A stretch of 64,000 nucleotides of DNA, from assembly GCA_016784025.1 (NCBI GenBank), contig JADHVL010000001.1, positions 73,753-137,752 on the forward strand, in the 5' to 3' direction. Origin of the DNA: Fidelibacterota bacterium. Lineage in GTDB: Bacteria > Fidelibacterota > UBA8477 > JABMPR01. Of this stretch, positions 3,825 to 60,033 are shown one piece after another (the first letter of the stretch is position 1; each line of letters opens with the position of its first letter). The translations under genes were made by a program, and so were the position numbers. The notes under the pieces were generated by a model. That model did no database searches and had not been told where the DNA came from. It was given only the letters and a program-made list of their open reading frames with translations.

Positions 3825-3881
3825 TCATAATTTGTAATAGGACAATGGCATGAGTCATGCTTGTTATTGGAGATGTCAAAA

Positions 3882-3896
3882 GTATATTAAGTATAC
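3882..3896. promoter_or_regulatory. Palindrome GTATA-TTAAG-TATAC, candidate operator/promoter element
   Basis: Perfect 5-bp inverted repeat with a 5-nt spacer, 126 nt upstream of the ATG at 4022. It is one of five such sites in intergenic DNA of this window. Confidence 0.5.
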
Positions 3897-4021
3897 TTAA
3901 CAAAATGTATTGCACAATATGAAAATTTGGATGCTAGAAAACATTTAAACCAGCCTTCTTCGAATACACGAAGGTTATAATATTTATTGGTAACCCAATA
4001 AGCGGTATAAGTGAGGCCTTA

Positions 4022-6943
4022 ATGAGAAGCATAAAAGCTTTCTTTCTGATCATAATCCTGATGACAAGTTGGGTATTTGCCGGCGTAACAGGTAAACTGG
4101 CAGGTGTCGTCATTAACCAGGAAACGAAAGAACCATTAATTGGTGCTTCCATTGTGGTCCCAACCACCTGGGTTGATGAATTTCAGGTGGAAATGCTCCA
4201 TCCTTTTGGGGCCGCAGCCAATGAAAAGGGCCAATATTTTATACTGAATCTTGAACCAGGCGATTATGACATGAAAGTCATGATGATGGGATACGCTACT
4301 GAGCTTAGAACCAGAGTTCGTGTAGATGCAGACCGTACAACCTGGGTGAATTTTGAGCTCAAACCTGAAGCCATTTTAGGAGAGGATGTAGTTGTTACCG
4401 CCTATCGGGCTGATGACATCCAAGTTGATCTTACCGCGACACGTCAAAATTATGCCATGTCTGAAATGGAAAACAATACAGCGATGTACGAAATTGACGA
4501 TGTAATAGCGTTACAGGCTGATGTTGTCGACGATCATTTTCGAGGGGGCCGTGAGAATGAGACCCTGTATCTGGTTGATGGCGGAACCATTGTAGACCCC
4601 ATGGAAAATGGTAAAGCCTACACACCTCTGGTAATCAGTATGGAACAGGTTCAAGTCGTCACGAGTGGATTTAGTGCTGAATATGGGAACACGCAGTCAG
4701 GCGTGGTGAACATGATACCAAAACAGGGTAAAAATAAGTGGCGTACGAATGTTCAGGTTGTTTATACCGCTCCACATGATTTGTATTGGGGTGGGAGCGT
4801 TTTCGATACCTCCAGGACTCCGTGGAACCTGTTTGCAAGTGGTCCCGATTTTTGGCTCACTTCAGTTACAGACGGTGAGAATCCCTATTTTCAAGAAACT
4901 GGTGGTGGCAAGTACAATGCACACACCTATGACGATACACTCAAGCAAGCCGCGCTGGCATATGCGCAATTCCGAAGTTTCTCCCGTCTGCTTGGTGGGA
5001 ACTATAATGATCTCTGGCAGGACATGAGAGTGAACTTTAGCAGCGGGGGTCCCATCACTGAGAATACCCGTATCTTTATGGCCCTGGGTAATCATTCAAA
5101 ACCCAATATCATGCCCTCCGAAGAACCGGATGTTCGACGCGATATCATGGTAAATCTTACCCACGATATAAGCAGTACCAACAAGCTGGTGATGGGTTAT
5201 GACTACAACTATAACTTTAGTAATACCATTGGTGTGAATAATTCGAGAGATCTCTTCTTCAGGGAAGAGGGCAACTCAAAAAGGATTCGGACCACCCAGA
5301 ATGTTCGTCTTCGCTGGGAACATGTTTTTTCTAAAGCTGCTTTTATGGATATAAATTTTCGGATCCTCTATAACCGTTCCTGGCAGCTCGCACCTATTCG
5401 TGATCCCTCTCAGCAAATACCACAATACGGTCCTGCCAATGCGATACCGTTCTTTTCACGATTAGGTCTCAATGGGATGTATAGTGATGAATTCGCCAAT
5501 TCCAGAAACCGCAATCAAAACATCACCTATTCTCTACTTGGACAGGTCTCCAATCAGATTACCAATTACAATCTGCTCAAGTTTGGCTTGCAGGTCTTTG
5601 CCTATGATATCAACAATTATAATGAAAATAATGTAACAAGTCAGACCAACTATGAGCTGAATGAATATAAAGTGAGACCGGTTGAAGGCGCACTTTACCT
5701 GGAAGACAAACTCGAGTTTGAGGGTATGATAGCCAATCTTGGTTTGAGATGGGATTTTTACGATTTTAATACGAGTTACTTCACGGATCGCTTCTCACCG
5801 ACACGCAATCCGGATTTTAATCCTGACCTACCCTACTTTGAGCAAACAGATTATTTGGACATAGAGAATGCCCTGCGTGAAGACACCAAGCCATTCTCTA
5901 GACTTCAACCCCGCCTGGGAATTGCTTTTCCCATTAATCTGGCGTCAGTAGTGCATATGAATTATGGTCAATTCGTCCAACGACCTGGCTTGAAGTATGT
6001 CTATGAACGTCGTATTGAAGAAACGGGTCGTGTAAACAGTCTGGGCAACCCTCGACTGCGTCCAGAGAAAACAAACTCTTATGACATTGGTGTCGTCCAG
6101 GGCTTTCCCTTTGGTATCAGGGTTGACCTGAGTCTCTATTACAAAGATGTAAAGGATCTCATCCAGGCTGTCACCTATATCGATGAAGAGACCAACGTCT
6201 ACCGCACCTATGACAATCGGGACTATGCCAATATCAAGGGCTTTCATGCCAGCATTGAAAAACGGAGTAAGCTTTTTACGGCAATTGTCCGCTATCGATA
6301 CCAAAAAGCAACGGGGAAATCAGCGACTCCTTTTGATGCACCTGTAACCTATCTGGAGCTGGACAGACTCTCCGGGCGAATAGATGTCGAATTACCCGAT
6401 CCAGAAGATATTCCTATGGACTATGAGCGTACACACCGTCTGGTTACCAGCTTTAATGTAAAAAGTCCCAAAAAATTCGGTCCTAAAATGTTTGGATCGC
6501 GACCGCTGGGTAGTTGGAACTTGAATATTCGTAACGACTGGATGACTGGCCGTCCCTACACTTTTGATCCTGAAATTGCGGGACAACGCTATAATCGCAG
6601 AACGCCAGATGAAAACAAGCTCCAGGCTCGTCTCCAGAAGACATTCCATATGAGAGCATACGAATACACGGTCTATTTCGAGGGTATGAATTTGCTGAAT
6701 GATAAGGTATTCAACTATTCAATATTCAGGGGGGATAGCGAGCGCAAATCTGATCTCCATGATTATGGCGTTGAAGGTGAATGGGAAAATATCTATGACG
6801 AAAATGGGGAATTGGTGGAGCAAATCTGGCATGATGGAGCCAGGGTTTATACCCTGAACGTGGATTACCCATATATCGAAGAAGCAGTCATATATAAGAA
6901 CAGCCCAGCCTATTACAGGATGGGTGTGAATATAAAGTTTTAG
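4022..6943 (+). CDS. TonB-dependent receptor-type outer-membrane barrel with N-terminal carboxypeptidase-regulatory-like domain (cassette 1, gene 1)
   Basis: 973 aa with a signal peptide. N-terminal GKLAGVVINQETKEPLIGASIVV...YFILNLEPGDYDMKVMMMGY (CarbopepD_reg-like). Plug-like LYLVDGG..VQVVTSGFSAEYGNTQSGVVNMIPKQG. Long barrel ending in aromatic ...YRMGVNIKF. RBS GTGAGG upstream. Confidence 0.85.
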   Translation: MRSIKAFFLIIILMTSWVFAGVTGKLAGVVINQETKEPLIGASIVVPTTWVDEFQVEMLHPFGAAANEKGQYFILNLEPGDYDMKVMMMGYATELRTRVRVDADRTTWVNFELKPEAILGEDVVVTAYRADDIQVDLTATRQNYAMSEMENNTAMYEIDDVIALQADVVDDHFRGGRENETLYLVDGGTIVDPMENGKAYTPLVISMEQVQVVTSGFSAEYGNTQSGVVNMIPKQGKNKWRTNVQVVYTAPHDLYWGGSVFDTSRTPWNLFASGPDFWLTSVTDGENPYFQETGGGKYNAHTYDDTLKQAALAYAQFRSFSRLLGGNYNDLWQDMRVNFSSGGPITENTRIFMALGNHSKPNIMPSEEPDVRRDIMVNLTHDISSTNKLVMGYDYNYNFSNTIGVNNSRDLFFREEGNSKRIRTTQNVRLRWEHVFSKAAFMDINFRILYNRSWQLAPIRDPSQQIPQYGPANAIPFFSRLGLNGMYSDEFANSRNRNQNITYSLLGQVSNQITNYNLLKFGLQVFAYDINNYNENNVTSQTNYELNEYKVRPVEGALYLEDKLEFEGMIANLGLRWDFYDFNTSYFTDRFSPTRNPDFNPDLPYFEQTDYLDIENALREDTKPFSRLQPRLGIAFPINLASVVHMNYGQFVQRPGLKYVYERRIEETGRVNSLGNPRLRPEKTNSYDIGVVQGFPFGIRVDLSLYYKDVKDLIQAVTYIDEETNVYRTYDNRDYANIKGFHASIEKRSKLFTAIVRYRYQKATGKSATPFDAPVTYLELDRLSGRIDVELPDPEDIPMDYERTHRLVTSFNVKSPKKFGPKMFGSRPLGSWNLNIRNDWMTGRPYTFDPEIAGQRYNRRTPDENKLQARLQKTFHMRAYEYTVYFEGMNLLNDKVFNYSIFRGDSERKSDLHDYGVEGEWENIYDENGELVEQIWHDGARVYTLNVDYPYIEEAVIYKNSPAYYRMGVNIKF

Positions 6944-6975
6944 CGCACCTTGTTGCTGAAAGGGCAAATAGAATT

Positions 6976-9339
6976 ATGGTGAAAATAGGAAGAACTGGGT
7001 TTGCGCTGATAATGATTCTTTCACTCATGGCAACATCGCTGTGGGCTCAAAGACGTGAATACAAGGTCATGCGCAGAGGCATGATGCGTGAATCACTCTA
7101 CAATAACGGAATTATCAGTACACCGTTTCATAATGATGGGATGGATATCGTGGATCACCCTCAGATGGAATGGCCCAAATATTCAAGTACGGTAGAGGGG
7201 ACCATTATTTATGATGGCCAACACAATACCATGGGTGGTGGTATACATATCTCAGGAAACATACATGACAAACCCTTTCAGGATGAACGTCACTTTTCCT
7301 TTTGTGGTCTTGTGGGAGGGGGCGGACCCGAGGAGACCATCGGTATCTGGAATTTCCCGGTAGAATTTCGTCGTATTGAAAATTATCCCATCCTGGCTGA
7401 TGGAAGTCTAAATCTGGAATATGATCCTGAAGAGGCAGAGGAAATCATTTACGCTAAATGGGCAACCAGTATGGGTGTCACAATCACACGGGTATCCAGA
7501 GCCTGGAGCTATCCTGACTATGACGATATGATTATCCATGAATACGAATTGGTGTTTGACGGAAATACCGATAGTGACCCTACTACTATTGAAGAAGTTG
7601 TCATCGAGCGCGGCTCTGGGGGAATAACCACACTCGATACCGTTCAAGTCTGGGAGGACTTTGTCGTATTCTTCGGTCAGAGCTGGGGTCCAAACATGTT
7701 TGCCTACCAGCGTCAACCTGAATATGGTGGGATATGGAATTGGAAACCGGGACTCATCAGCGATGGAAATCACCAGAGTTTTGACCATAAATTATGGACA
7801 CTTTTCAATTTTGATACTCAAACCAACGGTTCCTTAAACCGTAAGGCAAAACCTGAACCCAATCTGGATCTTTTTGAGGAATGGGCCAGAACCGGTAAAA
7901 ATGGTGGTGGGCTGCTAGCACCACAGGCAGTAGGTATGAGCATGCTGTACTACGACACAAAGCATCTCTCAGCAATCAATATTGCAACCGACACATCAGT
8001 CTATGACGGGGAAACCTCCTATGCCTGGAAAGCCAATGATCACGAACTGTTTCAGTTTCCAGATGAGCCGGATTCCAATGTATTCCGCATCAAGCAACCC
8101 TGGGAAATATACAAGAACAAAGGCTGGTTTGGCCTGAACAAGCTTTACGAAGGAGCTTCCAGTGAGACCGAGAAGCGAGGTAATCCTTTCGGTACAAGTT
8201 ATCTGGATGATCCACGAGTTGGTGAGACCTGGGTCGGTAGGGGAGCCTTCTCGTCTCAAAAGGCTAATGCCATGCCTCTCCAGGCCTTCGCATTTGGACC
8301 CTATACCATTCATCGCGGAGATACCGTTGAATTCAGTATGGCTCAAGTTGTGGGTTACGGAACCGATTCTCGTGAGATTATGGGAGGGGGATCCCATGAT
8401 CAAAGCGTCTTGTTTATGAAACCTGTTCACATTGATTCCTTTGATGTCATTCTTAAAAATGATGAGGGGAATGATGTACTCATGACCAGTCATTATATCT
8501 CTGATTACGGATACCCCGACTATGTCAATTCAGATGTGATCACAATTCAGGATGTATCACGCAAAGCCTATGAGATGTACACTGGAGATTCACTTGCACG
8601 AGTTGAAAGCTGGGGAACCGATGAATTCCGATATTGGCCTGAGAATAATGCAAGAGATGGAAAATATGTTGTTCAGGACATTCCCTGGCCTGCACCCGTG
8701 ATAGACGTTGCCAATACAGCCCTCCAGGGCGTGAGAGTTGCCTGGAATCGGGAGGTGGAGGATTTTCCGTATACAGTGAATGACCTTGGCGGATTCAATC
8801 TATATCGAGCCTATAATCCGCTTGGTCCCTGGAAATTGCTTGTCTCCAAGATAGTCGGAGATGTGAACTCAGATAACTCCTACGAATTCTTTGATGAAGA
8901 CACGACCTTGAAAATGGGTGAAGCTGTGTTTTACGCAGCGACAAGTTTTGATACTGAGGGCTTTGAATCTGGAAAATCCAATATCTTTCCTGATCCAGAT
9001 AATGCAGATGCACCGGCCTTCAGAAGAAGTCAGGGAGCAGTCGAGGAACTGGGTGATATTGTTGTGACACCCAATCCCTTCTTTGAAAAGTCTGGCTTCT
9101 CCGGAACTGGTGAAGATAATATGATTGGATTCTATGGATTGCCTGCAGTATGCACGATCAGGATCTATTCCTATTCTGGACAGCTGGTGGAAACACTGGA
9201 ACACGATTCTGATGCCTACAGTCATCAGTACTTTCAAGTAAGTCGAAACGATCAAATCATTGCAGCCGGTCTCTATTTCTTTTCAGTTTCAACCCCCGAC
9301 GGACAGACCACCGGCGGTAAATTTTTTATTATTAAGTGA
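6976..9339 (+). CDS. Orphan secreted protein with variant T9SS-like C-terminal domain (cassette 1, gene 2)
   Basis: 787 aa with a signal peptide (MILSLMATSLWAQ). I recognise no catalytic or binding domain. The C-terminus VVTPNPFFEKSGF...CTIRIYSYSGQLVETLEH...GLYFFSVSTPDGQTTGGKFFIIK resembles a CTD but deviates from the NYPNPFNP consensus. A paralogue lies at 33259..35538. Confidence 0.6.
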   Translation: MVKIGRTGFALIMILSLMATSLWAQRREYKVMRRGMMRESLYNNGIISTPFHNDGMDIVDHPQMEWPKYSSTVEGTIIYDGQHNTMGGGIHISGNIHDKPFQDERHFSFCGLVGGGGPEETIGIWNFPVEFRRIENYPILADGSLNLEYDPEEAEEIIYAKWATSMGVTITRVSRAWSYPDYDDMIIHEYELVFDGNTDSDPTTIEEVVIERGSGGITTLDTVQVWEDFVVFFGQSWGPNMFAYQRQPEYGGIWNWKPGLISDGNHQSFDHKLWTLFNFDTQTNGSLNRKAKPEPNLDLFEEWARTGKNGGGLLAPQAVGMSMLYYDTKHLSAINIATDTSVYDGETSYAWKANDHELFQFPDEPDSNVFRIKQPWEIYKNKGWFGLNKLYEGASSETEKRGNPFGTSYLDDPRVGETWVGRGAFSSQKANAMPLQAFAFGPYTIHRGDTVEFSMAQVVGYGTDSREIMGGGSHDQSVLFMKPVHIDSFDVILKNDEGNDVLMTSHYISDYGYPDYVNSDVITIQDVSRKAYEMYTGDSLARVESWGTDEFRYWPENNARDGKYVVQDIPWPAPVIDVANTALQGVRVAWNREVEDFPYTVNDLGGFNLYRAYNPLGPWKLLVSKIVGDVNSDNSYEFFDEDTTLKMGEAVFYAATSFDTEGFESGKSNIFPDPDNADAPAFRRSQGAVEELGDIVVTPNPFFEKSGFSGTGEDNMIGFYGLPAVCTIRIYSYSGQLVETLEHDSDAYSHQYFQVSRNDQIIAAGLYFFSVSTPDGQTTGGKFFIIK

Positions 9340-9351
9340 TGTGAGTGGAGT

Positions 9352-10419
9352 ATGAACATGAATAGAAAAATTGGCAGAACGAACCATGTCATGATCTGTC
9401 TGGCACTTTTCCTTTCCTCCCTGACAGCACAGGAGAAAGTGGGAACAACAGCATTTCAATTCCTGAAAGTCAATCCCACTGCCAGATCCGCGGCTATGGG
9501 TGATGCCACCTCATCGTTTGTTGATGGTGCATCCGCCATGTTTATCAATCCTGCAGGTCTAATGAATATTGACAAATTTGATATTTCAGCCTCTTATTTC
9601 AATTATTTCTTCGATGTAAAAACTTCAGCTTTTTCAGCAGCCTACAGCATCCCCAATTTTGGAACAGTTGGTGTGCTGGCTCAACTCACCGATTATGGTG
9701 AAATGAATGTTACTTCAGTTGAGGCTATGGGCTATCAAAATGGAGAGTTTAATCCAGGTTTTACCGGTGAGACATTCAATCCCGGACACCAGATCCTAGG
9801 TCTATCCTATGCCAATACACTTACAAACAAGTTTGCATTTGGTGTGACCGCGAAACACATCAAGGAAAATGCCGATTATTCCTGGAATGGCAGTGAGATG
9901 TCAGCTTCACTCATTGCCTTTGATACAGGACTGCAATACAGGACAGGTTATGAGTCTGTAAAAATTTCAATGGTCCTACGACATTTTGGTAAGGATGTAA
10001 GCTTTATAGAATATGAAGACACCCTGCGAATCTTTCATGATAGCACCTATACGGATGAAATCAGAACGGTAACCGGTAAACAATATCCCTTGCCCCAGAT
10101 TCTGGTTATGGGCATTTCAGGCTACATTTTTGGTCCAAAAGATGCGATTATCGCTACACCAGGCTCCAAATCAAGTCTACTATTCTCAGTGGATATGATG
10201 GCTCCCCGTGATTACGATCAGCAATTTAATTTTGGATTGGAATATGATTTTTCTAATCTTCTCTACTTACGGTCTGGCTACAAGCTGAACTACGATACAG
10301 AGAATTGGAGTCTTGGTTTTGGTCTCCATTATAAAGGTGTGCAGGTAGACTACTCGTTCAATAATTACGATTCATACCTTGGAACCATCAATCGATTTAC
10401 ACTTGGAATAGCCCTCTAA
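9352..10419 (+). CDS. PorV/PorQ-family outer-membrane beta-barrel (cassette 1, gene 3)
   Basis: 355 aa with a signal peptide. N-terminal GTTAFQFLKVNPTARSAAMGDA....ASAMFINPAGL matches the hallmark start of PorV/PorQ-family proteins. Alternating beta-strand pattern to the C-terminus. Confidence 0.7.
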   Translation: MNMNRKIGRTNHVMICLALFLSSLTAQEKVGTTAFQFLKVNPTARSAAMGDATSSFVDGASAMFINPAGLMNIDKFDISASYFNYFFDVKTSAFSAAYSIPNFGTVGVLAQLTDYGEMNVTSVEAMGYQNGEFNPGFTGETFNPGHQILGLSYANTLTNKFAFGVTAKHIKENADYSWNGSEMSASLIAFDTGLQYRTGYESVKISMVLRHFGKDVSFIEYEDTLRIFHDSTYTDEIRTVTGKQYPLPQILVMGISGYIFGPKDAIIATPGSKSSLLFSVDMMAPRDYDQQFNFGLEYDFSNLLYLRSGYKLNYDTENWSLGFGLHYKGVQVDYSFNNYDSYLGTINRFTLGIAL

Positions 10420-10438
10420 AGGTGCTCAGGATAATTTT

Positions 10439-11962
10439 ATGAAAGTACGTCATATACTTGTATCAATGGTTACGCTCTTAGCCCTACTTGTCCTTTCTGA
10501 CAGAGCGTTAGCACAGGGGAATGGGGCAGATCTTGGATTTCAGGGCCTGGGGCAAATCAGTCCCCAGAGCGTGAGAGGACTGGCTACTGGAAATGCATAT
10601 ACTGCCAGATCAGGTGATATTGAATCGATCTATTTTAATCCAGCTGGATTGAATGGAATCCAGGGATTTCAAGTCTCCTACTCTGCCAAAACCACCGAGA
10701 CAACCCTGTGGGAAAATAAAATGTGGGGAGATCAAGAATCTACACCCTTGCTTAGTATGATTATGGATTATCGTTTCGAAATTGATCCTGGACAATATGG
10801 CGTGACTGACGATTCACTCTGGTTGTTGATGGATATTGAGGATATAGGTATTCCTGAGCAAGGAGTTTATCATTACGAGCGGAGTGCTGCAAGTTGGATT
10901 GAAGAACGCTCAAAGCAGCTGCCCTTTAACTCAATCTCTGCTGTTTTACCAGTCACTCTATTCGATCAAGATTTTGTACTGGGTGGCTCTTATTCCAGTC
11001 AGTATAATGTGGATGATTATGATCGTAATGACAGTCATACCGATCCCTTCCTGGCCAACCGACCCTATATGCACTATAACTATGAAACGTCTGACGATAC
11101 TGCTCATGTTGTTTGGTCAAAATTCACCAGAAACCGTCAAGGTGTCATCAATTCAATGCGGTTTGCCCTGGGCTATAGTCTTGGGGAGGTCATTCAACTT
11201 GGTCTAGGGGTGAATAGTCTGTCAGGTGATACTGAGGATGAATTAATCCTCGATAAAATTGCATCCCTCGATTTATGGTCAAAAAGCTTTGTATTTACCC
11301 ACGATTCACTGGTGACCCGAACTTCTGGAACTTCAAGTTTTAGTGGTTTTAATCTGGATATGGGATTCATCTTTGATTTTTCCACAATAGATTTTGGACT
11401 GCATATCAAGCTACCCTATCGTCTGAATCGTGACTGGAGCTATACAAGGCAAATCACATCTCTTGATTCGATCTCATCAACACCTTCAAACGGTCAGGAT
11501 TTTGTGGACATTCCTGCCTCAGGTGCAGTTGGTATAAATATCCAAGCCACACAAGATTTGAGTATTGCCTTTGACATGGGCTTAATACCATACGAGTCAG
11601 CCACTTTTGAATATGCGGACTTTGGATATGGGGATATTGTCTCTGACTCGACTCAGTACCAATGGGTGGATGTATTGAGTTATCAAGTAGGTTTGACATA
11701 TGAGTTTTCAGACTTCTTGACACTAATGGGTGGGTATCGTTCAACGCCACTTCCTTATGTACCCTGGGGAGTTGCAGACAAATCTGAAGGTCCACGATCC
11801 ATGGGTCTGACCACAGGGATATCCATCTCTGTTATGAATATTCAGCTTGATGTTGCTTATGAATACCAGGAGTTAAAGTACTTAGAACCAGCTTATGCCT
11901 ACCTTAATTTCGTTACTCAGCTGAGGAACACATTCCTTGTTGGTTTGACATATGGGTTTTGA
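10439..11962 (+). CDS. FadL/PorV-like outer-membrane beta-barrel (cassette 1, gene 4)
   Basis: 507 aa with a signal peptide ending ALAQG. N-terminal RGLATGNAYTA..GDIESIYFNPAGL motif, as in FadL/UPF0164-type barrels. C-terminal beta-signal ...FLVGLTYGF. Confidence 0.6.
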   Translation: MKVRHILVSMVTLLALLVLSDRALAQGNGADLGFQGLGQISPQSVRGLATGNAYTARSGDIESIYFNPAGLNGIQGFQVSYSAKTTETTLWENKMWGDQESTPLLSMIMDYRFEIDPGQYGVTDDSLWLLMDIEDIGIPEQGVYHYERSAASWIEERSKQLPFNSISAVLPVTLFDQDFVLGGSYSSQYNVDDYDRNDSHTDPFLANRPYMHYNYETSDDTAHVVWSKFTRNRQGVINSMRFALGYSLGEVIQLGLGVNSLSGDTEDELILDKIASLDLWSKSFVFTHDSLVTRTSGTSSFSGFNLDMGFIFDFSTIDFGLHIKLPYRLNRDWSYTRQITSLDSISSTPSNGQDFVDIPASGAVGINIQATQDLSIAFDMGLIPYESATFEYADFGYGDIVSDSTQYQWVDVLSYQVGLTYEFSDFLTLMGGYRSTPLPYVPWGVADKSEGPRSMGLTTGISISVMNIQLDVAYEYQELKYLEPAYAYLNFVTQLRNTFLVGLTYGF

Positions 11963-19218: not shown

Positions 19219-19569
19219 ATGATGAGCAATAGAAAAAGGTTTGGGAAAGTTGTTGAATTAAGGGAAGAGAAAATTCAAGAATACAAAGATCTCCATGCCA
19301 GTTCCAATGCTGGTGTGCGACACCTCCTATCAAAATACAATATTCACAACTACACGATCTACCTCCATCAATTGGATGATGGTAAATACTACCTGTTCAG
19401 CCATTTCGAATACTCAGGAGAGGATTTTGAAAAGGATATGGAATTATTGAGCGAGGAACCAGAGAACGTGGCCTGGTGGAAGCTCACTGATCCCTGTCAG
19501 GTTCCCATCAAGAATCGGCAAACGGGTGAACAATGGGCACGCATGGAAGAAGTTTATCATAACGATTAA
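19219..19569 (+). CDS. rhaM: L-rhamnose mutarotase family protein (RhaM/YiiL-like deoxyhexose mutarotase)
   Basis: 116 aa. The pattern ..V.L...KI.EY..LH......V...L.K.NIHNYTIYL...........FEY.G.DF..DM......P....WW..T.PC matches the RhaM fold family (HNYxIY, WW). Confidence 0.65.
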   Translation: MMSNRKRFGKVVELREEKIQEYKDLHASSNAGVRHLLSKYNIHNYTIYLHQLDDGKYYLFSHFEYSGEDFEKDMELLSEEPENVAWWKLTDPCQVPIKNRQTGEQWARMEEVYHND

Positions 19570-30342: not shown

Positions 30343-33249
30343 ATGCCACAATCCAGAATAATGACTAAGCTTATTAAAGGTGCCATACTATTGGCTTTGA
30401 TCATTCAAACCACAGTATTGGCTGATCAAACGGGTAAAATTTCTGGAATTGTTCGGGATATTGAAACTGAGGAAGGGCTGATTGGTGCCAACGTTGTCAT
30501 TAATGAGCGTTGGGTGGGGGGAGAGATCGAACCCATAAGTAGACCCAGGGGAGCCGCCACAGATTTGGATGGCCGCTTCTATATCATTAATCTTGAACCA
30601 GGTTTTTACAATGTGGAAGTCCATATGATGGGCTATCAGTCAAAAATGATTGAAAGGGTGCGCATAGACGTCGATAAAACTACTGAATTATTCTTTGATG
30701 TCAGTTCCGAAGCACTCCTTATGGATGATATTTTAGTTACTTCCTTCCGCTCAGATATGATCCAGCGGGATCTTACTGCGACCAAGCAGAATTACATCAT
30801 GTCAGAACTTGAAGAAGTCGCTGGAATAAGTGATGTTCAGGACATAATCGACTTAAACGCCGATATCGTTGACGATAATGTTCGAGGGGGTCGTGAAGCG
30901 GAAACTCAATACCTGATTGGTGGAGCCAGTATTGTAAACCCTCTATCGAATAAGGCTTCCTTTAAGCCCATGACATCAGGTTTGCAGGCTGTTGAAGTAT
31001 TTACCTCAGGTTTTTCAGCTGAATATGGAAACGCCCAATCCGGTGTCATTAATATGGTTCCCAAAACAGGCGGTAAACGCTGGAGTACCAAGGTTAATTA
31101 TTCCGGAACATTACCTCATTATAATCACTGGGGCGGATCGGCCTGGAGTGAGGATACCAGACCTCACGATCTGTTTGGCGGAGACGCTGAGAATTGGCTT
31201 CAGGTCAGTCAACAGGATTCCAGTCAATCCCTGATAAACTGGAATAGTAACGGCTCCTATGCCAATTACGTGGATCTTGAAAATGCTACCCATGAGGACA
31301 GTCTCAAAGTGGCCGAGTTTGCTCGGGCTCAATACCTGGCTTTTGCCAGACAGATTGGGTTGGCCTATGATGAAGTGACTGATTACCGGATTGATCTTTC
31401 TACTGGAGGACCTGTATCTGATAAGACAAGAATCTTTCTGGCCGTCAGACAACAGGTAGATGGTACCAAAGTTTTGACAGCCTTTCCAAATAAATCAAGA
31501 CAACTGATGACAAACTTTTCATGGGCTCCCTCTGTGGAAAACAAGTTCATCATCTCCATGAATTATTATACCTCCGAGAAACTCAACTGGAGCGTGGGGA
31601 GTAGGTATGTCAAAATCTTCAATCCTGACTATGGTCCCCATCGTGATCGAAACCAGGCTGCGGATTATGGACTTCGCTGGGAACATATATTTAGTCAAAA
31701 ATCCTATATGGAGATGAACCTGAGGAGTTTCACTACGGATTATGCTCACAGATATCCTATCCGTGATCCTGAATGGATGGGTTCAAATTGGGGTAGCAAT
31801 TTTAATACACCGATCTGGTTGCCTGGCGATCTGAATAATAAGGTTCTTGAGAATAACTATTCTGCCGAGAAGACCAAGACAGTGAGGTTTTATGGTTCCT
31901 GGAATAAGCAACTCAATATCAATAATTTGATGAAAGCTGGTTGGCAGCTGTTTACGTATGATCTGCACACAGAGCGGTCGGCTTCAGCCAGTTCACCCAA
32001 TGCCCAAATTCTGACATACCACGAGAAACCCTATGAGGGAGCATTCTATGTTCAGGACAAGATGGAGTTTGAGGGCCTGGTTGCGAATATTGGACTACGA
32101 TTTGACTTCTATAATTATAATTACAAGTATTTCACAAATCTTTTTCATCCCACAGCCAATCCAAATTATGATTCCAGTTTACCACCTGGCTTGCGAGGCC
32201 CTTTTAACGATCCTGAATTAGCAGAAACAAGCCAAACCGAATTGGTCTACCATCTGCAACCCAGGATGGGGTTTTCTTATCCGGTCAATGAGCGATCGGT
32301 GATTCATGTGAATTATGGAAGTTTTACGCAGCGTCCCAATTTTGACAAAATCTATCGACGCTACTATGATATTACAGGCAACGAGGTCGATGAACTGGGT
32401 AATGCCCGTCTGAAGCCAGAGCGAACCAACGCCTATGATTTTGGATTGGTCCAAGGACTTCCCTTTGGTTTCAGGATTGATGTCTCAACCTATTATAAGG
32501 ATGTGAAAAACCTGGTTCAGACAGTCTTTTACGAAGACTCAACAGGGTCAGACTATAAAGGATTTGCCAACCTGGATTACGCCAATATCAAAGGATTCAG
32601 TATGAACCTTGTGAAAAAAACGGGTAATCTAAAAGTGAGCGTGCGCTACAATTTTCAGAAAGCCGTAGGTAAAAATCCGACACCTTTTGATGCAACACTC
32701 TCTTATAAGGAAGGATCTGACGGGCGTTATGATTTTGATCATGAGAATAATCGAGCACCTGAACCTGAAGATGTGATCATGAACTATAATCGGCGAAACA
32801 GAATTATCACTAACATTCAATATAAAACACCTACAGAATTTGGACCACAGATCTTTGGAGGACTACCTTTCTCAGGTATCTCAATGAATGCTAAACTCAC
32901 ATATCAGGAAGGAAGACCATATACGTACTACGGACCCGATGAATCAATCGGTCCTCAGTTTAATAAAGTCGGTCCAGATGAGCATAATCTCCAATTTATG
33001 TTTGCTAAAAATATGCGCTTTGGTAAACAGAAGCTGGCCCTGAACCTTACCATCTTTAATGTTCTGAATGAGAAGGTGTTCGCCTATTCCTTGTTTAAAG
33101 ATTTTGAAGCGGTTGAAGAATATGAAGCAGGCGACATTGATGCTGTGATGGTTGAAAGTGATTATTCACCCATGGATTTCCCCCAGCACATCCGCTACTA
33201 TCAAAATGCACCTCGCTACTATCGCCTTGGCGTTCAGTGGACTTTTTAA
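30343..33249 (+). CDS. TonB-dependent receptor-type outer-membrane barrel with carboxypeptidase-regulatory-like domain (cassette 2, gene 1)
   Basis: 968 aa, AAGGAG RBS. Collinear with 4022..6943 (GKISGIVRDIETEEGLIGANVVI, FYIINLEPGFYNVEVHMMGY, VEVFTSGFSAEYGNAQSGVINMVPKTG). C-terminal ...YRLGVQWTF. Confidence 0.85.
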   Translation: MPQSRIMTKLIKGAILLALIIQTTVLADQTGKISGIVRDIETEEGLIGANVVINERWVGGEIEPISRPRGAATDLDGRFYIINLEPGFYNVEVHMMGYQSKMIERVRIDVDKTTELFFDVSSEALLMDDILVTSFRSDMIQRDLTATKQNYIMSELEEVAGISDVQDIIDLNADIVDDNVRGGREAETQYLIGGASIVNPLSNKASFKPMTSGLQAVEVFTSGFSAEYGNAQSGVINMVPKTGGKRWSTKVNYSGTLPHYNHWGGSAWSEDTRPHDLFGGDAENWLQVSQQDSSQSLINWNSNGSYANYVDLENATHEDSLKVAEFARAQYLAFARQIGLAYDEVTDYRIDLSTGGPVSDKTRIFLAVRQQVDGTKVLTAFPNKSRQLMTNFSWAPSVENKFIISMNYYTSEKLNWSVGSRYVKIFNPDYGPHRDRNQAADYGLRWEHIFSQKSYMEMNLRSFTTDYAHRYPIRDPEWMGSNWGSNFNTPIWLPGDLNNKVLENNYSAEKTKTVRFYGSWNKQLNINNLMKAGWQLFTYDLHTERSASASSPNAQILTYHEKPYEGAFYVQDKMEFEGLVANIGLRFDFYNYNYKYFTNLFHPTANPNYDSSLPPGLRGPFNDPELAETSQTELVYHLQPRMGFSYPVNERSVIHVNYGSFTQRPNFDKIYRRYYDITGNEVDELGNARLKPERTNAYDFGLVQGLPFGFRIDVSTYYKDVKNLVQTVFYEDSTGSDYKGFANLDYANIKGFSMNLVKKTGNLKVSVRYNFQKAVGKNPTPFDATLSYKEGSDGRYDFDHENNRAPEPEDVIMNYNRRNRIITNIQYKTPTEFGPQIFGGLPFSGISMNAKLTYQEGRPYTYYGPDESIGPQFNKVGPDEHNLQFMFAKNMRFGKQKLALNLTIFNVLNEKVFAYSLFKDFEAVEEYEAGDIDAVMVESDYSPMDFPQHIRYYQNAPRYYRLGVQWTF

Positions 33250-33258
33250 GGGACTCCT

Positions 33259-35538
33259 ATGAAGAATTATTTATATAACCAGAATTCTACTGAGAGTGCT
33301 ATTTCAAAATGCTTAAAGTTGGTATTGCTTATCACATTCCTGATGAGTTTTACATCAACATTATGGGCACAACGTGAACGTCTGGTTCATGATCGTGGCA
33401 CTCTCCATGAGACGTTTTATAACACGGGGGTTTTCGTGGCTCCATTCAAAAATAATGGAATTGAATCTACCAATACTCCCATGACTGAATGGCCAGCCTG
33501 GTCCAGGACTGTGATTGACAATATTGAATATTATGGTCAACACAACGGTCTGGGAGGGGGTATCCATATTGGTGTGAACCATCCAGGAAAGTTAGGTGTA
33601 GATCAAAAACACTTTTCCTTTGCCGGGATGGTTGGTTCAGGTGGTCCAGAGATGGAATATGAAGTTTGGTGCTGGCCTCTTGAATTCTGGAAAGAAACCA
33701 ACTATCCACTGCAGGATGATGGTAGTCTCAATCCGGATTTTGATCCCAATGAGGCCGAACAACTCATTCATACCAGATTTGCTACCAGTGTTGGTATGAC
33801 CGTGACGCGGGTCACTCGCCAATACAGCTATCCCAGGCTGGATGATATCATCTTCCACGAATACGAATTAGAATTTACTGGAAATACCGATTATGATGAA
33901 ACCACTATTGAGCAGGATTCAGTAGATACCTATGTGGATGCCCTGTTTGCATTTCATATGGCCATACCACCTAACATGATGAGCTTTCAGAGAACATTTG
34001 GGTCATGGTACTGGAAACCGGGCATTTTCAGAGGTGATGTATACAACAGCTTTGATACTGATTATGCGATGTTTTATTGTCAAAGCATCAGCACCCAGCA
34101 AGACCACTCCAAACCTTATCATCCTGAACCAGATGAAGATCTGTTCTGGGAGTTTGCGTCTACCGGTTTAAATGGTGGTGGATTGCTGGCACCCCAGGCT
34201 GCTGGTCATACTGCCCTGCATTGGGATAGGGAACATCTAACAGTTCTAGATACGACAGACACTACTTTTCATCTGACCACCATGGAGTATGCACAACATG
34301 CGTCCGACTTTGAATGGGATGAAGGCTTAACCATTAAGCAACCCTGGGGAATTATCCAGAATGCTGGTTGGTTTGTTTCTACTGGGCTCATCAATAAACC
34401 ACACTACAAGACGCATAACCGGGCCCAGGGTAAATTTCCCGAACTTGATGCGCCTGATCCAAATGAGCATCCAATGTTTTGGGTGGGAAGACCCAAGTTT
34501 ACACCTAGAAGTGCAGAAGCACCGGCCTCGTCTTTTATTTGTGGTCCTTATACCATCAACCGCGGTGATAAACTGAATTTTAGTTTTGCACAGGTTGTTG
34601 GATACGGCTCAGAACCAGGAAAAAGGGTATTTGGAGGTGGGCAGAAATCAGATCTATGGGGGACAGCCCCTGATATCAATGCTGAACTCACAGTAGGGGA
34701 TAGTACTTTCAGATATCTGGATACTTTTGGATATCCCGATTATGTAAATGCAGAAACCGGTGTTATCTCTGTACAGGATGTAGCTCGGGAAGCGTGGAAA
34801 GCCTATACTGGCTGGGATATTGAGCATGATTCCCTCTGGGCTGAAGATTCTGTGGTTTGTTGGCCAGATTGGACCGAGCCCCACGGCTTGTATGATGTCT
34901 ATATTCCAGTTCCAGCTCCAGGCTTAAAAGTGAGCAATGATGAAGAGGCCAATGTACACGTGACATGGTCTAGAGCTGTGGAAGATTTCACGCATGCTTC
35001 TTCCGCCCTGGACTCATTCTATGTGTTTAGAAGTTTCAATCGGCTGGGACCATGGAAACGTCTGGTCACTATTGCAGCCGGGGATGTCAATTCAGAGGAT
35101 TACTATGAATACATCGATGACAATCTGGACTTCGCCTTTACAGATGTAGCCTTCTATGCAGTGACCTCAGTTGATGTCAACGGAAATCAGAGTGGCAAAA
35201 CAAATATGACTCAACATCGAAGGGATATTGGACCTGAGGGTGATCTTGAAAATATTTTTATTGTCCCCAATCCCTTTATCCTGGAGAGTGGTTTTCAAAA
35301 TGCGGCACTTGCGAATGCAGTCAGCATTTTCGGACTTCCCGAGAAATGCTCTATCCGTGTCTATAGTTTTGCTGGCCAAAGGGTTCAGAGTATTGAGCAT
35401 GACAATTCTGAGAGTGGATCGCTCACATTTAATCTGGTAAATGAGAACAACATGCTCCTGGCTCCAGGTGTTTATTTTGTTGCCATTCAAACTCCAGAGG
35501 GACAACAGGCCATGACAAAATTTGTGATTATTCGCTAA
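33259..35538 (+). CDS. Orphan secreted protein with variant T9SS-like C-terminal domain (cassette 2, gene 2)
   Basis: 759 aa. Collinear with 6976..9339 (YYGQHNGLGGGIHIG, HFSFAGMVGSGGPE, DDIIFHEYELEFTGNTD, GGGLLAPQAAG, FAQVVGYGS). C-terminus IVPNPFILESGF...CSIRVYSFAGQRVQSIEH...GVYFVAIQTPEGQQAMTKFVIIR. Confidence 0.6.
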   Translation: MKNYLYNQNSTESAISKCLKLVLLITFLMSFTSTLWAQRERLVHDRGTLHETFYNTGVFVAPFKNNGIESTNTPMTEWPAWSRTVIDNIEYYGQHNGLGGGIHIGVNHPGKLGVDQKHFSFAGMVGSGGPEMEYEVWCWPLEFWKETNYPLQDDGSLNPDFDPNEAEQLIHTRFATSVGMTVTRVTRQYSYPRLDDIIFHEYELEFTGNTDYDETTIEQDSVDTYVDALFAFHMAIPPNMMSFQRTFGSWYWKPGIFRGDVYNSFDTDYAMFYCQSISTQQDHSKPYHPEPDEDLFWEFASTGLNGGGLLAPQAAGHTALHWDREHLTVLDTTDTTFHLTTMEYAQHASDFEWDEGLTIKQPWGIIQNAGWFVSTGLINKPHYKTHNRAQGKFPELDAPDPNEHPMFWVGRPKFTPRSAEAPASSFICGPYTINRGDKLNFSFAQVVGYGSEPGKRVFGGGQKSDLWGTAPDINAELTVGDSTFRYLDTFGYPDYVNAETGVISVQDVAREAWKAYTGWDIEHDSLWAEDSVVCWPDWTEPHGLYDVYIPVPAPGLKVSNDEEANVHVTWSRAVEDFTHASSALDSFYVFRSFNRLGPWKRLVTIAAGDVNSEDYYEYIDDNLDFAFTDVAFYAVTSVDVNGNQSGKTNMTQHRRDIGPEGDLENIFIVPNPFILESGFQNAALANAVSIFGLPEKCSIRVYSFAGQRVQSIEHDNSESGSLTFNLVNENNMLLAPGVYFVAIQTPEGQQAMTKFVIIR

Positions 35539-35558
35539 ACGCGACCCAGGGAGAAAGA

Positions 35559-36533
35559 ATGATGAAATTGAATCAAATCAAATCAATAGTCATGCCCTTG
35601 TGTCTGTTGTTAGCGTTTTCAACAATTGATGCTCAGACAACAAAAGAGGGGACAACCGCATTTCAATTCTTGAAGGTAAAACCAGATGCCCGGGCAAATG
35701 GAATGGGAGAGGCCTTCACGGCAGTGGCTGATAATGCTGATGGTGTCTATTACAACCCTGCTGGGCTAACCGACGCAGGCAAATATGAATTGTCTATGTC
35801 TATGTACAACTATTTTGCCGATGTCCGGAACATGGGAGGTGTGGCTCTAGTGGGAACTCGGTTAGGCACCTTTGCCATACAGTATCAATACAATGATATT
35901 GGTCAAATACTACATACAACCAATGTAACCAGCCTTGCGGATTACCAGGCACTCTCAAGTTCTCAGGATTATTTTAGTCCCAATCATCTTATGCTGGGTC
36001 TTACTTATGCCAGAGCCGTGACTGATAAATTCAGCTTTGGTATCACTACCAAGTTTGTACAGGAAGACTTGATCTATTCTAAAGAGGATCAAATCCTTTT
36101 TGATGGTGGTGTGCTCTATCGTTCAGGTTGGAGAACATTACGTACCAGTGCGGTCGTTCGTCATTTTGGAGATGACATCGTATTTGAAGAGAAAGGCTTT
36201 TCAGCACCTCAGGTCCTCATTCTCGGTTTTGGTGTTGAATGCTTTGGTCCTGAAGGTGGCTTGATCGGGACAAATTCGTTTCAGAGGCTTACACTTGCTG
36301 CAGATCTTCTGGCACCGCGTGATTATGATCAACAGTATAACATCGGTGCAGAGTGGGCTTTGAAAGAAAGGCTGTTCCTGCGCGGAGGATATAAAATTAA
36401 TTATATCACTGAGGGACTCAGCCTGGGAGCTGGAGTATCCCTGGGAAATTTTAAATTCGATTATGCATATAATGATTATGATGACTTCCTGCAATATGTT
36501 CAGCGTTTTAGTCTGAGCTATGTGATGAGATAG
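35559..36533 (+). CDS. PorV/PorQ-family outer-membrane beta-barrel (cassette 2, gene 3)
   Basis: 324 aa. GTTAFQFLKVKPDARANGMGEAFTAVADNADGVYYNPAGL is the hallmark N-terminus. Paralogue of 9352..10419. Confidence 0.7.
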   Translation: MMKLNQIKSIVMPLCLLLAFSTIDAQTTKEGTTAFQFLKVKPDARANGMGEAFTAVADNADGVYYNPAGLTDAGKYELSMSMYNYFADVRNMGGVALVGTRLGTFAIQYQYNDIGQILHTTNVTSLADYQALSSSQDYFSPNHLMLGLTYARAVTDKFSFGITTKFVQEDLIYSKEDQILFDGGVLYRSGWRTLRTSAVVRHFGDDIVFEEKGFSAPQVLILGFGVECFGPEGGLIGTNSFQRLTLAADLLAPRDYDQQYNIGAEWALKERLFLRGGYKINYITEGLSLGAGVSLGNFKFDYAYNDYDDFLQYVQRFSLSYVMR

Positions 36534-36545
36534 ACTGGATATAAG

Positions 36546-38063
36546 ATGAATAAAATTAAATCAATCGTCGTGATATTAACGCTAGTAAGCATTGCTTCTT
36601 TCCCTCTGGTGCTTATGGGGCAAGGGAATGGAGAAATGATTCTCTTGCATGGGATGGCAAACCTTGAAACCGAAACACCCTGGACTCTGGCAAGAGCCGG
36701 TGCAGGAGTTGCTGGGGATGGATCTCTGAATGATATCTTTCGCAATCCAGCAGGATTGGTCGGATTGAAGGGCTTTCAATTTCAATTTAATGGTCATCTC
36801 TCGCGACGAAATCAATTTGAAAATATGGTCATGATGGAAGATCGAGTTGACCCAATTATTCTGCGATTTATCGACCGGACCTATCAGCCCCTGCACAGCA
36901 ACAATGGTGTATGGGTAAATGATCTTTTCGCGGGAATGACTGTCGATGATATTACCGTAGATGATACAGGACTTGATTTCTGGCATCGCGGAGCTGGAGA
37001 CTGGCAGGAACAACTTGTCTCAGCTGGTGTCTCAAATGTGAGTCTGGGATTACCCGTTGAAGTTTTTGGTGGACGAACCATTGCATTTGGCCTCGCTTTT
37101 CGAAACCAGAATATCTACGATTACGATCGGAATGAAGCTTATCTCAATCCAGTAATAGGGGATTGGTCTGATCAAGGTCTTGAAACTGACGGTGATACTT
37201 TGGATTTGCATCAGTTCGAATACATCCGTAAAAGAGATGGTGATCTGACCATGCTTCAGGCGACAGTTGCTATTGAGTTGCTTGATTGGATGAACTTCGG
37301 GATTGGGCTAAAATCAGTTTCAGGAAACACTGCTGATAACATATCCTGGGCGCATTACGGTGATTACAGATGGCGTACTAATGGTGGATTTTCCTTTACA
37401 TATGACGATACCTCAGCGGCTTTAGCAAATTTTACTGAGAGTGAATGGTCCTCAAACATGATTGATCTGTCAGTTCAGTTTCATACACCAGATTTTTCAG
37501 CAGGATTTCAATTCGACCTTCCAACCAAAATGATACGGGACTATTCTGATGAGGATTGGTTCATCCAACCTGATGATTCCATGTTTGTATTGGATAGTGC
37601 TGATTTGACTATGGAAGTATCAATGCCCTTGAAAACCAGCTTTGGAATTGCCGTGAAACCTAAAGATGCGCTGGAAGTGTTTTTCGACCTCGTCTGGAAT
37701 CCTTTATCAGAGTCAGCGATCGATATGGGCGATACCAGTCTGGCACTGGATGGGTACCAGCCCTGGATTGATACCTTCACCATGAAGTTGGGGATTGTAT
37801 ATAAAATTGATGAGTATGCTAGAGTTGCAGCTGGATACCAGACAGGAACTCGTGAATTTCATGGTTGGCGTTCACCCTTCATTGATAGGGGACCAGAGCA
37901 AGATATGTTTACTGCAGGAATCTCGGTAGATGCGCTTATGGGGACAATCGATATTGGATACTCCTGGCAAACACTGAAGTATATTGATTACTTTGCTACC
38001 AGTATGCACTATGTGACCCAAAAGCACAATCGGATCATGCTGGGGTATACTCTTAAGCTCTAA
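36546..38063 (+). CDS. FadL/PorV-like outer-membrane beta-barrel (cassette 2, gene 4)
   Basis: 505 aa with a signal peptide. ARAGAGVAGDGSLNDIFRNPAGL motif. C-terminal ...IMLGYTLKL. Same position and size as 10439..11962. Confidence 0.55.
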   Translation: MNKIKSIVVILTLVSIASFPLVLMGQGNGEMILLHGMANLETETPWTLARAGAGVAGDGSLNDIFRNPAGLVGLKGFQFQFNGHLSRRNQFENMVMMEDRVDPIILRFIDRTYQPLHSNNGVWVNDLFAGMTVDDITVDDTGLDFWHRGAGDWQEQLVSAGVSNVSLGLPVEVFGGRTIAFGLAFRNQNIYDYDRNEAYLNPVIGDWSDQGLETDGDTLDLHQFEYIRKRDGDLTMLQATVAIELLDWMNFGIGLKSVSGNTADNISWAHYGDYRWRTNGGFSFTYDDTSAALANFTESEWSSNMIDLSVQFHTPDFSAGFQFDLPTKMIRDYSDEDWFIQPDDSMFVLDSADLTMEVSMPLKTSFGIAVKPKDALEVFFDLVWNPLSESAIDMGDTSLALDGYQPWIDTFTMKLGIVYKIDEYARVAAGYQTGTREFHGWRSPFIDRGPEQDMFTAGISVDALMGTIDIGYSWQTLKYIDYFATSMHYVTQKHNRIMLGYTLKL

Positions 38064-38236: not shown

Positions 38237-38274
38237 CAATTATACCTAAAGTGAATGAGGGATACAATTATTCC

Positions 38275-44857: not shown

Positions 44858-44889
44858 CGTGAAAGGGTGTGGAACAACGCCCTTTCACG
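44858..44889 (+). terminator. Perfect 10-bp hairpin after the PKD protein gene (terminator-like, no U-tract)
   Basis: CGTGAAAGGG (44858-44867) pairs with CCCTTTCACG (44880-44889) across a 12-nt loop. It contains the GTG at 44869 that the ORF track uses as a start. Confidence 0.4.
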
Positions 44890-44940
44890 AGAGGAAGTAA
44901 GAATTTAATAATTCAAATCGCTCAATTAAGGCCTTCCACG

Positions 44941-60017: not shown

Positions 60018-60033
60018 TATAAGGAGTCATACA

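Follow-up and report, generated by a model that had tools for sequence, protein, structure and literature searches.

How can complex polysaccharides be brought across the outer membrane where no SusD is encoded beside the transporter? The question is raised by a 64,000-nucleotide (nt) stretch of DNA from a Fidelibacterota bacterium (assembly GCA_016784025.1, contig JADHVL010000001.1, positions 73,753 to 137,752 of the forward strand), called here the window. All coordinates below are those of the window unless another locus is named. It carries a cassette of four genes encoding a TonB-dependent transporter (TBDT), a protein of 787 amino acids (AA) that we call U787, a barrel of the PorV/PorQ family and a barrel related to FadL and BamG. 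To our knowledge, little has been established about the uptake of complex polysaccharides across the outer membrane outside Bacteroidia. Oceans, sediments and hot springs harbor abundant Marinimicrobia (SAR406), Ignavibacteria and Calditrichota. The reading towards which we lean, by a small degree, is that the cassette encodes an outer membrane glycan-import module that would work much as SusC/SusD does, would be built differently and would not depend on SusD.

A four-gene cassette present twice in one locus

Cassette 1 consists of four open reading frames (ORFs) on the + strand (4022-11962) separated by gaps of 32, 12 and 19 nt. The tight co-directional packing (12-32 nt) reported in the original prediction that singled out this region is therefore real. 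The genes encode, in order, the TBDT (973 AA, 4022..6943; PF00593 and a CarboxypepD_reg N-domain), U787 (6976..9339; the NCBI form has 775 AA), the PorV/PorQ-family outer membrane barrel (355 AA, 9352..10419; NF033709) and the FadL/BamG-like outer membrane barrel (507 AA, 10439..11962; near-threshold Toluene_X match and profile similarity to BamG). All four proteins carry a signal peptidase I (SPI) signal peptide and none carries a lipobox. A second, diverged copy of the whole cassette is found on the + strand of the same locus (30343-38063). It includes a paralogous TBDT (968 AA, 30343..33249) with 38 % identity over the full length and the same Pfam domains, followed by a U787 paralog of 759 AA (U759, 33259..35538), 40 % identical over the full length, which ends in a type IX secretion system (T9SS) C-terminal domain (CTD). 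The third gene encodes a PorV/PorQ-family barrel of 324 AA (35559..36533; NF033709, 159.1 bits; 38 % identity) and the fourth a FadL/BamG-like barrel of 505 AA (36546..38063; 24 % identity, E=1e-47; weak Toluene_X and BamG matches).

The SusD family gave no Pfam match among the window ORFs of 150 AA or more on the strand that bears the genes and the main - strand ORFs at 61.5-64 kb, nor was any member present in the Pfam-annotated neighborhoods of related loci. This agrees with the earlier remark that no SusD gene lies beside any of the three TBDTs of the window.

U787, a candidate T9SS cargo of a new family

U787 starts with an SPI signal peptide (AA 1-24; cleavage between SLWA and QRREYKV). 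In AlphaFold2 (AF2) models it is followed by a large, mainly beta N-domain of 546 AA (AA 25-570, nt 7048-8685), an FN3 domain also seen by Foldseek (about AA 571-670, nt 8686-8985) and a CTD beta-sandwich (about AA 690-787, nt 9043-9336) assigned to a specialized type A from its motifs and a sub-threshold TIGR04183 match. The mean predicted local distance difference test (pLDDT) is 80.6 and the predicted template modeling score (pTM) 0.84 for the whole chain, and 84.4 and 0.91 for residues 25-570 alone. The protein had been described as lacking any recognizable domain apart from a CTD-like tail. Our searches bear this out: no Pfam family matches U787, and TIGR04183 (T9SS CTD) scores 18.2 bits against a cutoff of 23, while the cassette 2 paralog passes with 26.0 bits. 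Some homologs carry PF18962 or the NCBI name 'T9SS type A sorting domain'. The CTD is recognizably of type A (PNPF...GxYF...K motifs). It is set apart from the window's nine enzyme CTDs by an insertion of 10-12 residues that is conserved (SGFxGxG....IGFYGLP) and by a CTIRI.SY.GQLV.TIEHD block, both absent from the latter. Neither U787 nor 25 inspected homologs have a Cys at position +1; the signal peptide is of SPI type and ends in WA before a Gln. The mature protein begins with Q(I)REYRIHDRGMLHET, a stretch strongly conserved in the homolog alignment.

Structural comparisons do not place U787 in a described family. With its C-terminal part, Foldseek against the PDB returned only FN3 pairs and the PorZ CTD. 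With the N-domain it returned weak partial matches (E 1e-5 to 1e-2, TM <=0.31) to beta-supersandwich domains (non-catalytic) of GH94/GH65/GH161 phosphorylases, the P1 domain of YidC and copper amine oxidases, plus a very weak match to a GH174 endo-fucanase (E=4e-3, TM about 0.3). The sequence profile found nothing in the PDB besides the PorZ CTD (5m11, E=0.12), and the best NCBIfam match of the U759 CTD is likewise the PorZ CTD region (NF052228, 28 bits vs 260, residues 661-758). Since there is no Pfam, PDB-profile or confident Foldseek match, U787 is predicted to be neither a SusD nor a member of any well-known family, and the confident structural match that could have overturned the original prediction did not appear.

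Three identities were considered and set aside. SusD is ruled out by the lack of a Pfam match, the predominantly beta AF2 models, the lack of a lipobox and the lack of any SusD among Foldseek matches. PorZ, which consists of two beta-propellers and a CTD, and PorU are ruled out as only the CTD matches. A known enzyme family for the N-domain is not supported: the PDB profile search was empty for it and the best structural matches were to non-catalytic domains. Five acidic residues of the N-domain (E153, E155, D183, D184 and E189) are invariant.

Mature U787 and the mature FadL-like protein both begin with Gln directly after the SPI site, the preceding residue being Ala (6976-7060 and 10439-10520). 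The same start is seen in homologs from Marinimicrobia, Calditrichia and KSB1 (loci L002-L034). This 'Q-rule' has been presented as particular to Bacteroidetes and 'not the entire FCB group' (PMC5837995).

The transporter and the two accompanying barrels

The TBDT (4022-6943) has an N-terminal CarboxypepD_reg-like extension (AA 26-125, nt 4097-4396), a TonB-box-like motif DVVVTAY (AA 122-128, nt 4385-4405), a plug (about AA 140-250) and a large barrel (AA 251-973), the layout of SusC/RagA-type transporters with their 22-strand barrel. Scores are 76.8 bits for PF00593, 49.9 for PF13715 (CarbopepD_reg_2), 39.3 for PF13620 and a sub-threshold 16.9 for Plug. The (E/D)VVVTAY motif between the extension and the plug is kept in the family alignment, as are the plug motifs. 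Membership of the SusC family is not supported. Neither TBDT copy matched the SusC/RagA model TIGR04056 at E<=0.01 in NCBIfam, a set that we take to contain this model. In the PDB, neither the single sequence nor the family profile retrieved a solved SusC-like chain, the matches being only receptors of the PhuR/Cir/FepA type.

The third protein belongs to the PorV/PorQ family, with NF033709 scores of 161.9 bits (159.1 in cassette 2) against a cutoff of 90. The equivalog models (NF033710 / NF033711) stay far below their cutoffs, at 89-92 bits (88.6 for copy 1) vs 220 for PorQ and 58-68 bits (58.4 for copy 1) vs 250 for PorV. The protein is an ortholog of neither. In the PDB its family profile matches PorV (6h3i_F, E=1e-17).

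The fourth protein falls in the FadL/OMPP1/TodX superfamily. Toluene_X (PF03349) scores 28.2 bits against a cutoff of 29.7 and is carried by homologs, and a PorV_fam N-terminal motif is also present (NCBIfam). The BamG equivalog NF053685 scores 38.3 (copy 1) and 18.5 bits (copy 2) against a cutoff of 250. Because a word-index homolog search gave 7 relatives, the family was assembled from syntenic loci. Its profile matches BtBamG (chain F of 9HIV and 9HJ3, the Bacteroides thetaiotaomicron BAM complex; 9hiv_F, E=2e-9), then CymD/TbuX/TodX (7e-4 to 2e-2). BamG is a FadL homolog and the only integral barrel besides BamA in this complex, where it packs on BamA and forms a platform for the surface lipoprotein BamH (PMC12578637). 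The three barrel assignments given earlier (TBDT, PorV/PorQ family, FadL-like) thus stand.

Conservation of the cassette

A homolog search retrieved 187 full-length relatives of U787 (700-810 AA). Nearly all lack a Pfam family and bear the names 'hypothetical' or 'T9SS C-terminal target domain'. The genomes of origin belong to Marinimicrobia/Neomarinimicrobiota, Fidelibacterota, Calditrichia and Melioribacteraceae/Ignavibacteria, or are unclassified metagenome-assembled genomes (MAGs); the labels 'Cytophagia', 'Lentisphaeria' and 'Bacteroidetes bacterium' on some MAG records are as deposited. A scan of one genome per species gave 232 relatives, of which 80 loci from Marinimicrobia, Ignavibacteria/Melioribacteraceae, Calditrichota (Calditrichia) and KSB1 were taken for synteny. 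With the four window proteins as tblastn queries, the order TBDT, U787, PorV-like, FadL-like on one strand was found in every locus whose contig extends far enough for evaluation (about 71 of 80). Exact ORF calling delimited 62 cassettes in full, their genes typically about 10-30 nt apart. Such an arrangement is far beyond chance, and a lack of synteny in related genomes, which would have spoken against the original proposal, was not observed. One locus, L076, appeared as an exception; this is explained by scaffold gaps of 100 N on both sides of its U787 gene. Several genomes have two or three cassettes, such as KSB1 Bin_298 (L034, L059 and L077).

The surroundings are degradative, with varied substrates. 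L002 is of alginate type, with a GntR regulator, PL17-like and PL6-like lyases, a KdgF-like cupin, a short-chain dehydrogenase/reductase (SDR) and a major facilitator superfamily (MFS) transporter. L083 and L084 combine PL6 and Hepar_II_III proteins with DUF4957/DUF5123 CTD proteins. Among 90 flanking proteins from about 35 loci, the most frequent annotations are T9SS CTD (43), DUF5123 (21), Beta_helix (16) and Chondroitinase_B (13), followed by Hepar_II_III_C (7), GntR/FCD (6) and Alginate_lyase (5). The claim that the four genes form a real unit, widely conserved within glycan-utilization loci, is upheld by the synteny together with the alginate, xylan and fucoidan-type contexts.

A protein of about 540 AA (Beta_helix/DUF5123/Flg_new_2, with a CTD) often lies directly downstream of the FadL-like gene, in L083-L085 (L085 being from Fidelibacterota) and about 20 other loci. 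It is frequently followed by larger DUF4957/DUF5123 proteins. It may be a frequent fifth component in alginate/PL6-type loci and is absent from the window.

The family extends further. A profile search over 1.84 billion representatives (clusters at 50 % identity) gave 163 matches at E<=1e-30 and 2563 at E<=1e-10, many of them proteins of 600-840 AA that share at least the FN3 and CTD part. Four distant relatives were placed in their loci (L086-L089). Each lies downstream of a TBDT gene, with CarboxypepD_reg in all three complete TBDTs. In the three loci with enough downstream sequence, a PorV-like gene follows and the FadL-like gene is absent (Pfam annotation). The TBDTs of this three-gene version have 1030-1150 AA. 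In WOR-3 (L088, positions 4526-11334 of that contig), the triad belongs to a locus of xylan type (GH43, GH10, GH3 and an MFS transporter), where no CTD protein other than the U homolog is encoded near the PorV-like gene. The WOR-3 subfamily is homologous to U787 over the N-domain, FN3 and CTD (hhalign probability 100 %, E=6e-49, 556 columns), and its CTD has both the insertion and the TIEHD block. Since the WOR-3-type loci have three genes and no FadL-like barrel, TBDT, U protein and PorV-like barrel make up the core, of which the four-gene arrangement is a subfamily.

These contexts also bear on the direction of transport. The cassette might be a device for export or outer membrane biogenesis, such as a TonB-dependent exporter of the Oar type or a BamG-like assembly set, and no importer at all. 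Oar-type proteins carry a CarboxypepD_reg N-domain, as the TBDT does, and among solved structures the fourth barrel comes closest to BamG. However, the cassette consistently lies in loci that also encode degradative enzymes, exo-enzymes of the periplasm, regulators and sugar transporters of the inner membrane. The BamG equivalog reaches 38 against a cutoff of 250, and one genome, or one locus, can hold several paralogous cassettes, which is typical of substrate-specific uptake systems. We regard an export or biogenesis role as very improbable.

Covariation between the parts of the cassette

Pairwise-distance matrices were compared across 56 complete cassettes (500 Mantel permutations). U787 covaries most closely with the TBDT (r=0.93), followed by the PorV-like with the FadL-like barrel (0.86); the other pairs reach 0.71-0.80 (Mantel 0/500). 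Dividing the proteins into domains separates two signals. The U787 N-domain follows the TBDT barrel (r 0.92) and plug (0.86) and much less the PorV-like barrel (0.63). The CTD follows the PorV-like barrel (0.82) and the FadL-like barrel (0.77) more than its own N-domain (0.65). Given the N-domain, the partial r is 0.70 between CTD and PorV-like barrel and 0.30 between CTD and TBDT; given the CTD, it is 0.85 between N-domain and TBDT and 0.22 between N-domain and PorV-like barrel. The 125-residue plug correlates more with the U787 N-domain than the adjacent FN3 domain does. The pattern is no simple function of DNA distance or segment length.

The N-terminal extension of the TBDT (here AA 22-125, 4085-4396) covaries with the PorV-like (0.72) and FadL-like (0.70) barrels, and less with its own barrel (0.54) and the adjacent plug (0.50). 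This may be a lineage signal or a periplasmic contact.

Could lineage explain the covariation as a whole? Paralogous cassettes within one genome are no more alike in their CTD, PorV-like or FadL-like parts, and the two CTDs, two PorV-like and two FadL-like barrels of the window rank with the least similar pairs of the entire set. A lineage-only explanation is partly countered by these paralogs, with a caveat of taxon signal that is weighed below.

Two other roles for the proteins can be judged against these data. U787 might be an independent surface protein, exported by the T9SS and anchored, acting as a glycan binder of the SusE/F type or as a new enzyme without any lid complex. The weak resemblance of its N-domain to carbohydrate-associated supersandwich domains of GH94/GH65/GH161 and to the GH174 endo-fucanase would fit such a role, as would the invariant acidic residues and the many other CTD surface proteins encoded in cassette loci. 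It does not readily explain the strict one-to-one adjacency to a TBDT in all evaluable loci, nor why the N-domain tracks the TBDT barrel and plug far more than the other parts. As to an enzyme, no catalytic domain was matched by Pfam, PDB profile or Foldseek. Moreover, members of the family are found in loci whose substrates differ chemically (alginate, xylan, fucoidan type), which argues against a substrate-specific enzyme. An independent U787 is in our view unlikely.

The second alternative assigns to the PorV-like barrel, and perhaps the FadL-like one, the role of a locus-wide T9SS shuttle or anchor for all CTD enzymes, forming a surface 'utilisome'. PorV shuttles type-A CTD cargo in general (PMC10202324), at least 12 proteins of the window carry a T9SS CTD, and nearly half of the flanking proteins elsewhere do so (43 of 90). 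Three observations are harder to reconcile with it. In the xylan-type locus of WOR-3 the PorV-like gene has the U homolog as its only nearby CTD protein; the U787-family CTD is unlike the enzyme CTDs and covaries with the PorV-like barrel after correction for the N-domain; and there is one PorV-like gene per U787 gene even where a locus holds two cassettes. A locus-wide shuttle thus appears a poor candidate, somewhat poorer than an independent U787.

A proposed model for SusD-independent glycan import

In the import module that we slightly favor, U787 would cross the outer membrane through the T9SS. It would then be kept at the cell surface by its specialized CTD, retained and bound by the neighboring cognate PorV/PorQ-like barrel, as PorZ is by PorQ and PorU by PorV. 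Its N-domain would lie on or beside the extracellular face of the transporter, in a position analogous to the SusD lid. There it would capture oligosaccharides released by the T9SS-secreted endo-enzymes of the locus and pass them to the barrel, to be imported by TonB-energized movement of the plug. In the periplasm, the GH29 fucosidases and sulfatases, which lack a CTD, would trim the oligosaccharides, and the ATP-binding cassette (ABC) transporter would take up the sugars. By analogy with the part that BamG plays for BamA and BamH, the FadL/BamG-like barrel would most likely be a second membrane platform, packing on the other barrels or aiding assembly. A broader version remains tentative, and we hold it less firmly than the module itself: cassettes of this kind might form a class of SusD-independent uptake complexes across the Fibrobacteres-Chlorobi-Bacteroidetes (FCB) group, with a T9SS-secreted lid of new fold, its uncleaved CTD held on its own PorQ-like barrel, and a BamG-like barrel as a further subunit.

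Several points weigh against this model. Mirror-tree correlations are inflated by shared descent. The taxon signal (analysis of similarities, ANOSIM R) is higher for the N-terminal extension, CTD and PorV-like barrel (0.45-0.53) than for the plug, barrel and N-domain (0.27-0.34). The covariation of CTD and PorV-like barrel could therefore reflect a shared adaptation to the host T9SS; each part may be adapting to lineage machinery (T9SS, TonB) instead of binding the other. The CTD score of U787 copy 1 is below the curated cutoff. The invariant acidic residues of its N-domain mean that an enzymatic role may also be considered. The role given to the FadL-like barrel is an analogy with BamG, and this barrel is missing from the WOR-3-type triads.

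The earlier proposal of a SusD-independent machine with the 787-AA protein as its surface partner is accordingly retained in part. A T9SS-type CTD is predicted, the N-domain tracks the TBDT and the CTD tracks the PorV-like barrel, this last signal being also compatible with lineage adaptation. Its framing, in which the cassette stands where a SusC/SusD pair would be expected, has to be adjusted, as the host belongs to Marinimicrobia and not to Bacteroidia, U787 being 100 % identical to a 'hypothetical protein' of a Candidatus Marinimicrobia MAG. Nor is the clade uniformly devoid of SusD, since a canonical SusCDE operon is reported in the genome paper of Melioribacter roseus (PMC3534657). On both counts, an alternative architecture describes the cassette better than a gap-filler or mere substitute.

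Comparison with known systems

The similarities with SusC/SusD concern organization. Both transporters have a carboxypeptidase-regulatory-like extension, a TonB-box-like motif and a plug, and both have their partner gene directly downstream. Both systems reside in polysaccharide-utilization loci (PULs) with surface endo-enzymes, periplasmic exo-enzymes and regulators, and occur as several paralogous sets per genome. The U787 N-domain, with its 546 AA, is comparable in size to SusD. However, the partner is beta-rich in one case and an all-alpha tetratricopeptide repeat (TPR) protein in the other. U787 has no lipid anchor and its delivery would depend on the T9SS and not on lipoprotein export. 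In addition, the cassette TBDT has no SusC/RagA match and is accompanied by two additional barrels.

As U787 and its barrel would do in the model, the PorQ-PorZ and PorV-PorU pairs associate a CTD cargo with a PorV/PorQ-family barrel. The U759 CTD has PorZ as its best match and the PorV-like barrel has PorQ. The CTDs of PorZ and PorU are uncleaved and bound non-covalently to PorQ and PorV, and cognate PorV-like barrels have been proposed to shield CTDs from cleavage (PMC10202324). Retention of the U787 CTD on a cognate barrel would thus have a direct precedent. The differences are that the cassette barrel is not orthologous to PorQ or PorV, that the passenger domain of U787 is unrelated to those of PorZ and PorU, and that the pair is encoded with a TBDT in catabolic loci and in multiple copies.

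PorP/SprF barrels are encoded beside their type-B CTD cargo and are thought to anchor it, as for SprB-SprF (PMC10202324). The clustering of a cargo gene with a dedicated PorV-like barrel gene is shared with the cassette. In the latter, however, the CTD is type-A-like (TIGR04183), the barrel is of the PorV/PorQ family, and the link is with nutrient import and not with motility adhesins. BamG offers another parallel, being a 14-stranded FadL-type barrel that is packed on another barrel and holds a surface protein (PMC12578637). It is the closest solved relative of the fourth cassette barrel, which is no BamG ortholog, is about 100 residues longer, and is found in catabolic loci in several copies. 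Finally, TonB-dependent glycan import without a SusD lid is known, for example in the Xanthomonas carbohydrate-utilization (CUT) loci and in marine Gammaproteobacteria (PMC13543919). Unlike the cassette, these loci lack a conserved gene for an extracellular partner, a T9SS cargo and a PorV-like barrel.

The four-gene unit had been thought uncharacterized, and no description of it was found in the literature searched, whose coverage is incomplete. It is not mentioned in the C. abyssi genome paper, in that of M. roseus (PMC3534657) or in a 2026 review of bacterial glycoside transporters (PMC13543919). This review mentions neither PorV nor the T9SS nor the phyla concerned. Family members among the search matches are unnamed or bear 'hypothetical protein' or generic names only. 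The novelty would lie in a new protein family at the center of a TonB-dependent uptake of glycans that uses a surface partner, a type of uptake that is itself known.

PUL prediction depends on SusC/SusD pairs. It would miss the cassette loci entirely, and the signature TBDT-U787-PorV-like(-FadL-like) would provide a new genomic marker for glycan-utilization loci in mostly uncultured FCB phyla. If the model is true, a transporter lid can be built in a new way, with a T9SS cargo in place of a lipoprotein, and the PorV/PorQ-family and BamG-like barrels would have a second physiological role. Type IX secretion and TonB-dependent import would be directly coupled in one structure, and this class of uptake would span Marinisomatota/Fidelibacterota, Ignavibacteria, Calditrichota, KSB1 and WOR-3.

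Other features of the window

The cassettes are part of a co-directional + strand block of about 60 kb (16-60984) that forms a fucoidan-type locus, apparently directed at a sulfated, fucose-containing polysaccharide. The earlier reading of a glycan-utilization locus is confirmed by the Pfam scan. It identified four GH29 fucosidase genes (39852-41462, 41472-43076, 53673-55214 and 56107-57531), three sulfatase genes (23522-25039, 38251-39822 and 49746-51395) and the ABC sugar transporter (57553-60984), all on the + strand. The same strand carries the gene of a 1500-AA beta-helix protein (25638-30140) and one of the L-rhamnose-mutarotase family (rhaM-type, 19219-19569). Further products are GH141-like and other beta-helix proteins, BNR/sortilin-like proteins and a CBM4_9 protein. 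The CTD count given above, which lends indirect support to a T9SS in this organism, includes matches above or near threshold, and neither the GH29s nor the sulfatases are among them.

The third TBDT (831 AA, 44869-47364, + strand; OMP_b-brl_3, Plug and CarbopepD_reg_2) has a PKD/DUF5123 CTD protein and a beta-helix protein as neighbors and no U787, PorV-like or FadL-like partners.

The largest gap around cassette 1 is the 197-nt intergenic region upstream of it (3825..4021, + strand), a candidate promoter region. It contains a terminator-like hairpin (3847-3861) followed by several weak sigma-70-like matches (3861-3926). Promoter and terminator scans gave no more matches than in shuffled sequences, so that this evidence is weak.

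Two BNR/sortilin-like proteins (11999-13909 and 17826-19193) contain a dockerin type I domain (PF00404, 31 and 21 bits). One of them also bears a T9SS CTD, and no cohesin partner was seen in the window. Dockerins are unusual in a T9SS setting of Marinimicrobia. At the start of the block, two successive ORFs for beta-helix/GH141-like CTD proteins (16-1380 and 1362-3824) overlap by 19 nt, and the first may extend beyond the start of the window.

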